A stretch of 32,000 nt of DNA, taken from positions 73,493 to 105,492 of the forward strand of contig JAEOUO010000003.1 of NCBI GenBank assembly GCA_016839265.1, in the 5' to 3' direction. Below, one piece after another: positions 6,025-22,815 of the stretch; the first letter of the stretch is position 1; each line of letters opens with the position of its first letter. A program made the position numbers and the translations under genes. The notes beneath the pieces are model-generated. The model was not told the origin of the DNA. It saw nothing but the letters and a program-made list of their open reading frames with translations, and did no database searches. Source of the stretch: Candidatus Odinarchaeota archaeon. GTDB lineage: Archaea; Asgardarchaeota; Odinarchaeia; Odinarchaeales; Odinarchaeaceae.

Positions 6025-6243
6025 ATGGGAGTTAAAAATATTTCAATAAAGGATAAAGTCTATAAAATGCTTAAAGAAGAGAAACGTGGCGAAGAAAGCT
6101 TCAGTGATGTAATAGAGAAGCTTATGACTAAGAGAAAAATAGATTTAAAAGATTTTTACGGTTGCCTTAGGGATAGTATGATTTTAGATGAAATATTTGA
6201 AAAAATAAAGGAATATCGAGATGAAGCGAGGGTTCGAATTTGA
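6025..6243 (+). CDS. vapB: VapB-family antitoxin (DUF217-like)
   Basis: KNISIKDKVYKMLKEEKRGEESFSDVIEKL motif; ATG 6025 follows a GGGGG RBS (track starts at 6007); overlaps the toxin start. Confidence 0.85.
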   Translation: MGVKNISIKDKVYKMLKEEKRGEESFSDVIEKLMTKRKIDLKDFYGCLRDSMILDEIFEKIKEYRDEARVRI

Positions 6244-6623
6244 TCATCTTGGATACTAGTGCTATAATTGATATTTTCAGAGGTAGAGAAGGTATTTTAG
6301 ACCTTATAGATACGGATGTAACTACAACGGTGATAAACTATCATGAAATAATGGCTGGTGTGAAACATAAAAAAGCTAAAATTGAGGAACGCTATTTTAG
6401 AAGGTTTTTTTCAAAAATAGAGGTCTTACCATATGAGAGTTCAGCGGCTGAAAAATCAAGTGAAATCCAAGCGTATATGATGAATTTAGGTAAAAAAGCG
6501 AATACGCTTGATATTTTAATAGCTGCGATAGCTATTCAAAATGGAGCTGAGAAAATACTAACAAGGGATAGAGATTTTGTTGAAATATCGAAAATAACTG
6601 ATTTAAAAGTGATAGTGTATTAA
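6240..6623 (+). CDS. vapC: VapC PIN-domain toxin
   Basis: IILDTSAIID, NYHEI, LDILIAA and TRDRDF retain the acidic catalytic residues. Confidence 0.92.
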   Translation: MIILDTSAIIDIFRGREGILDLIDTDVTTTVINYHEIMAGVKHKKAKIEERYFRRFFSKIEVLPYESSAAEKSSEIQAYMMNLGKKANTLDILIAAIAIQNGAEKILTRDRDFVEISKITDLKVIVY

Positions 6624-17269: not shown

Positions 17270-18079
17270 GTGAATGTTGAAATAAAGCCTGCTCACATGA
17301 TGTTCACAGACGGTTATAAAATAGTGATAACAGGTGAAAACGGTGAAGTTGAAAAACACTATATGAAGTTTGAAGACGGTATAAAAAATGTTTTCAAATG
17401 GAGCGTGCTCTCACCGTTCCTAGCCAGATTAAAAATAATCAGCCAAGACTATCATATAAAAGACCCCCAGTTAAGATGGGAGAACGAGTTTAAAGTCATA
17501 ACATATCTTAGAAGAAAACTATCTGAAGGAAGCTATCCTTTATACATTCCGAAAATAACTACAAACCATGTTAAATCATTAGAAAACCCTCAGCTTCAAA
17601 AATTCCTCCACCAATGGCGTGAATACAGGTATACAATACTAGAATACGTGGAAGGCCCCACACTGAGAGAAATGCTTTCAAAACCTGAAAACTACAAGCT
17701 GGAAGATGAGATAAAACTGTTAGGGGAATGCATAGGAATAATGCACAGTTTCAGCGTATGCCAGTTCGACCGGAGAACAACAAACGATATAAAAATACCA
17801 GGCGGATTCTGCTGCGTAGACTACAGTCTAGCTAAAATATTCCAGAAATGGGATAACGCATATTATAGAGCAGTAGCATTCGACATAGATAATGAAAGAC
17901 TATGGTTGCCCCCTAAACTATTCAAAATATTCCAGGAAGCCCACGACAAGTACTTAACATCAATCAAAAACTTTAACATCGAAAAATATAGAACAGCGCT
18001 AACCCAATTCAAAAGACTATCCCAGTTATCCACCATATTGAAACCGCTACTATTCCAACTGGATGGAGCTCCCTTATAG
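17270..18079 (+). CDS. Atypical protein-kinase-like protein (RIO/Bud32/Kdo-InaA-like fold)
   Basis: YMKF (beta3 Lys), RWENEF (alphaC Glu), IPKI, LEYVEG hinge, MH..QFDRRTTN catalytic loop, VDYSLA in place of DFG. Confidence 0.7.
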   Translation: MNVEIKPAHMMFTDGYKIVITGENGEVEKHYMKFEDGIKNVFKWSVLSPFLARLKIISQDYHIKDPQLRWENEFKVITYLRRKLSEGSYPLYIPKITTNHVKSLENPQLQKFLHQWREYRYTILEYVEGPTLREMLSKPENYKLEDEIKLLGECIGIMHSFSVCQFDRRTTNDIKIPGGFCCVDYSLAKIFQKWDNAYYRAVAFDIDNERLWLPPKLFKIFQEAHDKYLTSIKNFNIEKYRTALTQFKRLSQLSTILKPLLFQLDGAPL

Positions 18080-18089
18080 CTTCAACCAG

Positions 18090-19056
18090 TTAATCTACAA
18101 CTAGTTTATTTAAAAAATCTAAAGCTCGCATTAAAACCTCTAAAGCATATATTGGAATATCGGATCTAACTTTATTAATTTCTTTGACTGTGATATTAAA
18201 TTTCTTTCTTCTTGAATGCGTGAGAATCGCCCTAATATCAGAGAAAGAATATACTTCTTCCCCTCTCTTATCAGAAACATATTCAGTAGGGTTTACAACA
18301 GTTTCTTCACGAATACATTTATAACCAGCCATAAACGCGGCTTCGAAATCACTGTTTATAAACATTTCCACGCCTTCCGAAAAATAATATATTAAAAGAT
18401 CAATATCACTTTCTTTATCAGGAAATTTTTCATCAAGTTTCTTTCTGATAAAATAAATTTTCTCCTCTATTTTATTCTGAATTATGTTTTCACAAAGAAG
18501 CTTATATCTATACGTGAAATTAACAGATAAAAGACTAGTAGCGCAATATACAATAGATAAAAATATGGACACTTGTATCACGGAAGTTTCTGTTAATAGA
18601 GTAGGGTGATTCAATAGTAAAATACATAAAAGAAAAATGCCTGAACTAACACCCAACCCGTATCTTGTTAATAAAGAGAGCGGCCCATATTTTAACGTAA
18701 ATTTCATCCGAGTAAAAAAGTGTAGAAAACTAGTAATGAACGAGGGCACTAATCCAGAGAAGTAGAATACTACTAATATAGGTAAATTAAAAGCTAAGCT
18801 AATAATAAAAAAAGTTAGCCATAAACCAAGGTAGGGAGCAGGCAAAATTATTAAATAAACATTTTTATGTTTAACTGTACTACCTAAAAAAGGGGCGAAC
18901 GCGCAGTAAATTAAAATAAAATTATAAATGTATAGAGAAATAGAATACAGAAAAAACGTTTCAATAGACGTTAGTATATAAAGTAAAATTGTACTAATTA
19001 GAATATACTTTAATATAGTGAAAGATTTTTTTTAAATTATTATCTTCTCCAACCAT
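18090..19056 (-). CDS. Multi-TM protein with C-terminal HEPN-like domain; frameshifted near the 5' end (track ORF 18090..18845 is truncated)
   Basis: GGTGA RBS and ATG 19056; an A8 tract at 19026-19033 carries one extra base; the downstream frame is open 19031 to 18090; RAILTH = R-x4-H at 18233-18216. Confidence 0.65.
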
Positions 19057-19142
19057 GTTGCTTCACCTAAACAAGTTAAAAATGCTATTAACTTCCATTG
19101 TTTTCTATAACGGGGGAGAAGTCTCTTTTAACTCTTTTAATA

Positions 19143-19946
19143 TTAAAGTTCCACATATATATATCCTATTACTATCCCGGAGAATAATCCGGTAAGATGA
19201 CCTACCACGTCGATTATACTACCTTCTACGGTTACTATATTAGCGGGGAAGAAAAAGTAGACTAAAAGATAGTATACTGTAAGAGTTAGTAGGGTAGCTA
19301 AAATAATTAGCTTGGAGTACAGGTCTTTTTTAAATAAGCGGGTTATCGGTTGATGTGTTTTTAATAAAAGTATTATGCTGCAGGCTAAGGTTGTTATGAA
19401 AATTATCATGCATATAACCTCTAAGATCCGTGAAAGAGTTATAACCGAGATAGTTAACAGGATTAAAGAAAGCGCAAAGTAATTAAGCGTGAAATTGTTT
19501 TGAACCGTTTTAGTTAAGAATACTCTCAGAGACGGAATTGTTAAACCGAGTAATCCGGCTACTGCTGTTGAAAGCCCGCAGGAGATAAATGATTCTCTTA
19601 TAATGAAAGTGGTGTAAAAGTTGAAGGAGATATTATATGTGAAGGGGATTAGGAAAATAGTTAATAACATTAAAGTTAAAAGCATATGAGTTGAACCCGC
19701 CTTCCAGTTTACCAAGTATAATAGTATAGATATTATGAGAAAAGAAGCTATATTACCTGATAAGTGATCTTGATTTATATGAATGAATATTGATGTGAAA
19801 AATGTTAAAGGATTCCATTCCCCGGTTTGAAGCATAAGAGACCGCTGAACTTCAACTGGTAGAAGAGATAAAAGAACACAGGCTAAAGGTATTATAATAA
19901 TAAGTGTTATGATAAGGTAATTAGTAATATGGCTTTTACCTTTCAT
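19143..19946 (-). CDS. Rhomboid family intramembrane serine protease
   Basis: TSIFIH..DHLSGN, CGLST (GxS nucleophile), GHLTGLFSG (catalytic His), 7-8 TMs. Confidence 0.8.
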   Translation of the reverse strand: MKGKSHITNYLIITLIIIIPLACVLLSLLPVEVQRSLMLQTGEWNPLTFFTSIFIHINQDHLSGNIASFLIISILLYLVNWKAGSTHMLLTLMLLTIFLIPFTYNISFNFYTTFIIRESFISCGLSTAVAGLLGLTIPSLRVFLTKTVQNNFTLNYFALSLILLTISVITLSRILEVICMIIFITTLACSIILLLKTHQPITRLFKKDLYSKLIILATLLTLTVYYLLVYFFFPANIVTVEGSIIDVVGHLTGLFSGIVIGYIYVEL

Positions 19947-22284: not shown

Positions 22285-22815
22285 ATGTGTTTAAGAAATG
22301 ATTCTCATATTACTGACAGTAAAGTTTCAGTTACCGCTGTTACATCAGAGGATAAAACAGTTCAAGGGGAGAGATGGTCACTAGCTAAGAGGATTCTACC
22401 CTTCTTTAAAAAGAAAATAGCGGTTTTAGTTGACGGCCCGAATATTTTAAGAAAAGAGTTTAATATTAAGCTTGAAGAGGTTTTAGAAGCTGTTAGCAGT
22501 CTTGGAAAAATTCAGGTTGCTAGAGTTTACTTAAACCAGCATGCATCAGAGAAGCTTATTGAAGCGATATCTAATAGTGGTTTTGAACCGATTATTTCAA
22601 CTATAGATGTTCACTTAAAAATAGCGATGGATGTTATGGAACTTATTAACAAGATAGAGCTCGATTACATCGCTCTCGCAAGCAGACATGCTAGGTGTGT
22701 ACCGATTCTTCATAAATTAAAGGAGAAGAATCTCGGAACTGTTGTTATAGGTTTCGAACCCGGGTTCAGTGTAGCTTTACAGAATACCGCGGACTATGTT
22801 TTCAAGTTAACTTAA
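22285..22815 (+). CDS. NYN domain protein (TIGR00288/DUF88 family)
   Basis: VLVDGPNILRKEF, LNQHASEKLIEAI, FSVALQNTADY. Confidence 0.85.
   Translation: MCLRNDSHITDSKVSVTAVTSEDKTVQGERWSLAKRILPFFKKKIAVLVDGPNILRKEFNIKLEEVLEAVSSLGKIQVARVYLNQHASEKLIEAISNSGFEPIISTIDVHLKIAMDVMELINKIELDYIALASRHARCVPILHKLKEKNLGTVVIGFEPGFSVALQNTADYVFKLT

Follow-up and report, generated by a model that had tools for sequence, protein, structure and literature searches.

A frameshifted gene for a membrane-bound, HEPN-like protein in an Odinarchaeota genome: a candidate family of membrane-gated RNases

Structure of the gene

The window analysed here is a stretch of 32,000 nucleotides from a Candidatus Odinarchaeota genome of 1.35 Mb in 6 contigs. 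Its minus strand carries, at 18090-19056, a gene of about 321 codons in which a membrane domain is joined to a C-terminal HEPN-like domain with an R-x4-H motif, and in which the reading frame is broken close to the 5' end. The gene belongs to a family that we are inclined to read as membrane-gated HEPN RNases with a role in conflict or defence, the copy in this genome being probably switched off. The parts of the gene are listed below from its 5' end; residue numbers are those of the 251-aa open reading frame (ORF) found within it.

19034..19067, minus strand: true 5' end, read directly from the DNA, with the ribosome-binding site GGTGA at 19063-19067, ATG at 19054-19056 and first codons M-V-G-E-D-N-N-L-K-K
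19026..19033, minus strand: homopolymer of eight A (A8; T8 on the plus strand) that leaves the start codon out of frame, the shift needed being +1
18846..19025, minus strand: upstream continuation in the same frame, with transmembrane (TM) helices TM1-TM2; three-frame translation gives no stop and no ATG, GTG or TTG, and the stretch aligns with proteins P0003-P0005 and with the 319-aa gene that is intact in the closest congener (G001)
18483..18845, minus strand: membrane part in frame with the HEPN domain, TM3-TM6, with helices 2-18, 23-45, 61-78 and 86-121 in the AlphaFold2 (AF2) model
18093..18482, minus strand: cytoplasmic C-terminal domain, residues 122-251, about 130 aa and all-helical in AF2, a linker helix followed by a HEPN-like four-helix bundle
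18306..18308, minus strand: E180, an acidic position closing helix 2 at its C-terminal end; the alignment column holds E in 25/46 and D in 21/46
18216..18233, minus strand: R205-x4-H210 motif (I-R-A-I-L-T-H), with R205 at 18231-18233 within helix 3 and H210 at 18216-18218 just beyond it

The longest ORF at the locus, 18090..18845 (minus strand, TTG start at 18845, stop at 18090, 251 codons), is the 3' three-quarters of the gene. Close homologues are all 300-330 aa long and extend about 70 residues further at the N-terminus, and the frame of the ORF remains open and homologous to these full-length relatives as far as about 19031. An earlier sequence-only reading of this DNA had described the domain at the end of the ORF. 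The ORF is real and holds all three peptides quoted in that reading; the gene itself is longer, reaching 19056, its intact homologues have six TM helices, and the frameshift is not mentioned in the note on this ORF.

The N-terminal peptide M-V-G-E-D-N-N-L-K-K is homologous to the N-termini of P0003 and of the G001 protein. The extra A falls after codon 10, and relative to the ATG the remainder of the gene is shifted by one base; translation from ATG 19054-19056 as it stands yields a 20-aa peptide that ends at a stop at 18994. At the homologous site G001 has A6 and a metagenome contig, L001, has A5. The tract is unchanged in three independent Logan assemblies and in contigs from oil-field and hydrocarbon metagenome runs, from three studies. 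Because independent assemblies carry the identical tract, we rejected an assembly error and take A8 to be genuine DNA. A frameshift so near the 5' end makes a full-length protein from this copy unlikely, and the copy is probably off or decaying, unless slippage on A8 restores some full-length product. There are two internal starts, TTG 18845 and ATG 18707, of which the second gives the 205-aa form predicted in databases (P0002). Neither is preceded by a visible ribosome-binding site.

Topology and predicted fold

Hydropathy and the positive-inside rule give six hydrophobic segments in the intact homologue, and the 251-aa ORF keeps four TM helices. Lysine and arginine in the intact homologue are confined to the N-terminal tail, loops 2 and 4 and the C-terminal tail. 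This placement puts both termini on the inside, and the HEPN domain is therefore cytoplasmic. Conserved polar positions in the membrane part (H42, R46, R61, N109, R113) are all on the cytoplasmic side, beside the HEPN domain.

AF2 run with the family alignment modelled the 251-aa ORF with a predicted local distance difference test (pLDDT) of 92 and a predicted template modelling score (pTM) of 0.88, and residues 122-251 alone with a pLDDT of 94.2. In the domain, helix 1 (145-163) and helix 2 (167-179) are followed by an insert at 180-200, a 21-residue loop with a one-turn helix, and then by helix 3 (201-208) and a kinked helix 4 (220-228 and 230-250); R205 lies inside helix 3 and H210 two residues past its end. 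HEPN domains are described as all-alpha, up-down four-helix bundles of about 100-120 aa made of two alpha-hairpins, with helices 2 and 3 separated by a long insert, the motif placed where helix 3 ends and extending into the loop, and a kink in helix 4 (PMC3710099). The domain, as modelled, matches this anatomy point for point.

An exhaustive VIA-align comparison with 48,161 chains gave HEPN or KNTase_C proteins as 9 of the top ten structural matches, with modest Z-scores of 6.0-7.4:

1wol, ST0689, Z 7.4
9bj5, AbiV, Z 7.3
1ufb, TT1696, Z 7.3
8jbc, Csm6 HEPN domain, Z 7.2
2hsb, AF0298, Z 7.0
3c18, nucleotidyltransferase-like protein, Z 6.9
3o10, sacsin HEPN domain, Z 6.6
8xdj, HepT toxin, Z 6.4
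4nqf, HEPN domain protein, Z 6.0

Lower-ranked matches include further HEPN proteins (LsoA, Csm6, Csx1 and HepT), and with the full-length model the sole matches spanning residues 138-251 were AbiV and TT1696. In sequence, hhalign against 27 HepT (PF01934) sequences returned a single match, limited to the motif, that sets Rx4H on Rx4H (R-N-x-L-x-H in HepT) in register (P 6.5e-4, probability 27%).

A bare R-x4-H motif is at chance level, being found in 13% of shuffles of the same protein (34% for Rx4-6H). In the alignment of 47 homologues, R205 and H210 are the only invariant columns, with L208 and F162 near-invariant, and it is this invariance, not the motif by itself, that leads us to take the motif as real; its family form is [FY]-S-x-I-R-x-x-L-x-H-[SA]-[RK]. 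Helix 2 of HEPN domains typically carries a conserved acidic residue, usually within E-x3-[KR] (PMC3710099), and the candidate for it here is E180, preceded four residues earlier by K176 (Lys in 38/47). The assignment of the C-terminal domain to HEPN is, in our judgement, likely to be right. The sequence-only reading had already placed a soluble helical domain of about 130 aa after the TM region, with the R and H codons where we find them, and its HEPN proposal had hinged on the fold and on conservation of the two residues in homologues. The boundaries and codon positions agree with ours, the predicted anatomy and structural matches are those of HEPN, and both residues are kept in 47/47.

Other searches for relatives of the domain added little. 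The best match among PDB sequences, Cas13bt3 (E 0.029), was discarded because the alignment misses its real R-x4-H, the catalytic motif. A shape search of the ESM Atlas gave nothing useful (TM-score <= 0.35); the feature search had a best score of 0.84 and a DUF4145-carrying cluster at 0.81, which we treat as a lead only. Across 151 genomes of the phylum DUF4145 is matched only three times, which is not enough to base a profile comparison on.

Distribution of the family

An exhaustive phmmer search of 1.84 billion cluster representatives found 48 proteins at E <= 1e-3, and a domain-only profile search of 5.8 billion proteins recovered family members alone, none of them Pfam-labelled. In the phylum, 3 of 400 genomes have a family match. 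One of the three, G017, holds a truncated remnant (L009 1453-1938), a 161-aa ORF that matches positions 9-142 of 327 of the family profile, that is, the membrane part, and then stops, with no HEPN domain. Elsewhere, P0022 and P0040 are also truncated. A search of genome contigs with query A1 found one relative in a Bathyarchaeia metagenome-assembled genome (MAG), and the same search with P0001 found none; viral contigs (IMG/VR) searched with A1 and P0027 contained no relatives. By these sequence searches the family is a small, patchily distributed and unannotated archaeal one.

Flanking genes and variation within the genus

The gene lies between two others:

19143..19946, minus strand: gene for an intramembrane protease of the rhomboid family, in the same orientation and upstream, 86 nt from the true start (Pfam Rhomboid, E 9e-9); given as context and not shown as a partner
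17270-18079, plus strand: convergent kinase-like gene, 269 aa, with weak, partial similarity over residues 123-193 to Bud32/RIO-type kinases (NCBIfam, E 2e-6)

G001 consists of one contig (1,418,269 bp) and has the intact 319-aa gene at the same place. In the two further congeners searched, G002 (L016 3573-5348) and G003 (L015 3967-5649), the HEPN gene is missing, and the gap between the rhomboid and kinase-like genes is 27 and 60 bp. As these two genes directly adjoin, the HEPN gene is a clean presence/absence polymorphism at a fixed site. The rhomboid gene is kept in both genomes without the HEPN gene, and the kinase-like protein is 78-91% conserved in all four genomes of the genus. We considered the kinase-like neighbour as an IRE1-like partner and dropped the idea, since it is a core gene, present also where the HEPN gene is absent and there 78-90% identical.

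Between the window and G001 the HEPN protein has the lowest identity of those compared (51%), followed by the rhomboid (61%), with others reaching up to 94%. Contig L001 is 93-97% identical to the window over 14.2-17.8 kb and only 52-74% identical within the HEPN gene, where it is 92-98% identical to G001. This pattern implies two deep alleles, of about 50% protein identity, in backgrounds that are 90-97% identical, together with recombination; the breakpoint lies near 17,850-18,000, at the 3' end of the kinase-like gene. Such behaviour marks an accessory gene that is shaped by diversifying or frequency-dependent selection or is repeatedly replaced, and not a housekeeping gene. GC content was dropped as a sign of horizontal transfer: the gene is AT-rich (29-32%), and its neighbours at 17-23 kb are likewise.

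Elsewhere in G003, an extra 451-aa gene (L015 1956-3311) lies between a PNPOx-like gene and a gene for a 159-aa membrane protein, and is absent at that site in the window and in G001; its product combines a signal peptide with N-x-S/T-rich repeats and a TM helix at the C-terminus. Two other predicted RNases are encoded in the window, neither beside the HEPN gene: a stand-alone PIN-domain protein at 6240-6623 (plus strand, E 8e-17) and a NYN-domain protein at 22285-22815 (plus strand, E 6e-20).

Contexts of the homologues

The neighbourhoods of other family members were compared at about 11 loci. A TIR_2/ThsB-like gene (L018 1685-2188) lies 22 nt upstream of P0012 and co-oriented with it, with a MazG-like gene nearby; PADLOC models of the ThsB-like kind match this adjoining TIR protein. 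P0027 has a divergently adjacent gene for a CAP12/Pycsar-type TIR protein (L056 3959-4789) with an uncharacterised N-terminal domain, and stands in an island of small ORFs flanked by integrases. P0012 and P0027 are distant members of the family, and the TIR proteins beside them are unrelated to each other. An integrase also adjoins P0014.

Intramembrane proteases recur as well: a rhomboid twice, adjacent in the window and G001 and fused in P0009, and PrsW once, at P0008. P0008 is neighboured by a divergently adjacent PrsW intramembrane protease gene (entry L017 148-702) and by a DUF559 endonuclease-like gene. In P0009 (L007 75-1787) an N-terminal rhomboid is fused in frame; it is only distantly related to that of the window, and an internal ATG is possibly the original start. 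The convergent neighbour of this fused gene is a Kae1/TsaD-like gene. P0005 is adjoined by a 451-aa protein of no known family (L002 555-1910), with a C-terminal stretch G-A-D-L-L ... V-V-E-C-T that may resemble a PD-(D/E)xK nuclease motif.

Proposed function and alternatives

HEPN domains with an intact Rx4-6H motif are metal-independent endoRNases in which the His and Arg are catalytic (PMC3710099). In the model that we favour, the HEPN domain would most likely be an enzyme of this type held at the inner face of the membrane, and the six-TM domain would pack against it and keep the RNase silent. The trigger would be an event at the level of the membrane, such as virus entry or envelope damage, or possibly cleavage by a neighbouring intramembrane protease, and activation would stop growth in the manner of an abortive-infection or conflict effector. 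Indirect support for a defence role comes from the presence/absence of the gene within the genus, from its hyperdivergent alleles and from the TIR and integrase neighbours of homologues. The sequence-only reading, which had proposed a membrane-sensing RNase effector, is supported in part, namely in its HEPN-like assignment. Considered as a whole, the reading to which we give somewhat better than even credence is a family of membrane-gated HEPN RNases that act in conflict or defence, the gene being probably off in the window genome.

A number of observations weigh against it. On the side of the domain, hhalign against 27 PF05168 HEPN sequences from related genomes gave no match (probability 1.4%); Foldseek, a comparison that the sequence-only reading had suggested, found nothing in the PDB at E <= 1e-3 with either the full or the domain model; in hmmscan none of the 47 members was matched as HEPN by Pfam, NCBIfam or PADLOC models; and profile searches of PDB sequences with alignments A5 and A6 gave no usable match. 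The acidic residue of helix 2 sits in a K176-x3-[DE]180 arrangement and not in the usual E-x3-[KR], and the residue after the motif Arg, where the HEPN norm is a polar N, D or H (PMC3710099), is variable (T14, N10, A9, D5, S4, V3; Ala in the window copy). On the side of defence, the window surroundings are housekeeping genes (proteasome alpha subunit, prolyl-tRNA synthetase, F420 genes, amino-acid permease), and Pfam scans of all window ORFs >= 100 aa revealed no cas, MNT, TIR or integrase gene, which agrees with the absence of a cas or MNT partner already remarked upon in the sequence-only reading. A TIR gene adjoins the family at only 2 of the roughly 11 loci, and several other loci have non-defence genes, for instance the metabolic genes around the Bathyarchaeia MAG copy. 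The copy in the window is frameshifted, so that possibly no product is made. Finally, a known TM protein with a HEPN-like domain, Csx28, works as a pore without nuclease activity (bioRxiv 10.1101/2021.11.02.466367).

This precedent underlies an alternative that we consider unlikely, namely a Csx28-like effector that perturbs the membrane, in which the bundle would mediate the oligomerisation or gating of a pore or channel built with the six TM helices, with R and H engaged in interfaces or in ligand binding and no RNA cleaved. Csx28 joins a TM segment to a divergent HEPN domain and forms an octameric, nuclease-inactive pore with the motif residues in interfaces or salt bridges (bioRxiv 10.1101/2021.11.02.466367). 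A large six-TM domain with conserved polar residues exceeds what an anchor needs, and in the full-length AF2 model the TM and HEPN parts are packed together with confidence (at the pTM given above); both would suit a pore. The motif of Csx28, however, is described as divergent, whereas here the R, the H and the acid of helix 2 are strictly conserved even among sequences only about 20% identical, as is typical of a catalytic site, and the polar TM residues are at the cytoplasmic face instead of along a pore, with no cas13b in the window.

Equally unlikely in our estimate is that the A8 tract is a functional switch, acting by transcriptional slippage, +1 recoding or DNA phase variation, so that some full-length protein is made. 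The roughly 60 codons downstream of the shift are still open and homologous, the same allele persists in assemblies from the three studies (2021-2025), homopolymer length varies between alleles (A5, A6, A8), and low-level expression would suit a toxic effector. Against this, eight A's are short for efficient slippage; no recoding signal was identified; no A7 variant occurs in any contig, though contigs hide minority variants, and there is no RNA run among those with the locus; and the family visibly decays elsewhere, in the G017 remnant and the truncated P0022 and P0040.

We hold it slightly less probable still that the domain is a generic four-helix bundle outside HEPN, on a transporter- or sensor-like protein, with Arg and His binding phosphate, a metal or a small ligand. 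The lack of family-level sequence matches leaves room for such a bundle, but the share of HEPN/KNTase_C among the top ten of 48,161 chains is far above any plausible base rate, the motif sits at the exact HEPN position, along with the insert, the kinked helix 4 and an acidic residue in helix 2, and the one hhalign match to HepT puts both motifs in register.

A narrower version of the RNase reading makes the gating proteolytic: in response to a cue from the membrane or a virus, a rhomboid or PrsW-type protease would cleave the six-TM domain and release or unlock the HEPN RNase, with A8 as an on/off switch. The recurrent protease neighbours speak for it. The rhomboid is a core gene that persists without the HEPN gene, and we therefore rate this version as improbable; if true, it would be a route to abortive infection by regulated intramembrane proteolysis in Asgard and other archaea.

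Least probable of all is a housekeeping, membrane-proximal RNA-processing enzyme: the housekeeping or metabolic neighbours in the window, G001 and the Bathyarchaeia MAG, the lack of a conserved antitoxin-like partner and the stimulus-dependent membrane RNA decay proposed by Anantharaman et al. for bacterial TM-HEPN proteins would fit it, but such an enzyme is hard to reconcile with a gene found in so few genomes of the phylum (3/400) and absent at the same site in 2 of 3 other congeners, the fastest-evolving of its region, with two deep alleles, a frameshift in the window and TIR or integrase genes beside it elsewhere.

Membrane-tethered HEPN proteins have been predicted since 2013, but hardly any has been put to the test; Csx28, the single case solved so far, is a pore and not a nuclease. 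Under the membrane-gated RNase reading, the gene would be a candidate for the first membrane-gated RNase defence gene of Asgard archaea, marked by presence/absence within the genus, recombining deep alleles and repeated TIR, integrase and membrane-protease neighbours, and as a single gene it makes a compact system for tests in a heterologous host. Even as nothing more than an accessory gene in decay, it gives the databases a HEPN family that is new and at present without annotation.

Comparison with known systems

The authors of the closed chromosome of Ca. Odinarchaeum yellowstonii LCB_4 (1.418 Mbp) found no defence system except CRISPR (PMC9246712). No model of PADLOC-DB 2.0, another resource suggested by the sequence-only reading, matches the window protein or P0012, and hmmscan detected no SLOG-, Macro- or SAVED-type sensor domain among the 47 members. 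The family does not form a Thoeris-like pair, as TIR genes adjoin it at two loci, with unrelated TIR families, and none is in the window. Nor is it a type VII HEPN-MNT system: neither the window ORFs >= 100 aa nor the scanned neighbours elsewhere contain a nucleotidyltransferase domain. The HepT/DUF86 (PF01934) toxins of the HepT-MntA type VII toxin-antitoxin system (5yep, 7ae2, 8xdj) are without family-level sequence similarity to the family described here, which in contrast has the six-TM fusion, no MNT partner and no conserved Tyr after the His, and in most members lacks the Asn that follows the Arg in HepT.

AbiV, the lactococcal abortive-infection HEPN RNase (9bj5, 9bj6, 9bj7), is soluble, and differs in its host domain and partners. 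Its motif is typically without the His, for which an alternative His upstream stands in (PMC3710099), whereas the present family keeps the canonical R and H. The HEPN RNases coupled to a membrane or stress signal in IRE1 and RNase L (KEN domains) and in C6orf70 (PMC3710099) provide an analogy only, as there is no kinase fusion here.

Two comparisons come closer. Csx28, a type VI-B2 CRISPR accessory protein that acts in antiviral defence, has the same order of an N-terminal TM region and a C-terminal HEPN-like four-helix bundle; it differs in having one TM helix, a divergent motif and a nuclease-inactive, face-to-back octameric pore dependent on Cas13b, against six TM helices, a strict motif and no cas genes in the window. 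The bacterial membrane HEPN groups of Anantharaman et al. (2013) share a membrane-tethered cytoplasmic HEPN domain with an intact motif, for which control of RNA cleavage by a membrane stimulus was proposed. Those groups (DUF4145 with a WP-TM helix, one-TM Abi2/Swt1 and HEPN-2TM-Zn ribbon) have one or two TM helices and fall in named families, whereas the present family is archaeal, has six TM helices on the N-terminal side and matches none of them. Fusions of TM and HEPN domains are therefore already a known kind, mostly predicted; what is new is this family, with its six TM helices, its place outside Pfam and PADLOC and its behaviour as an accessory conflict gene.

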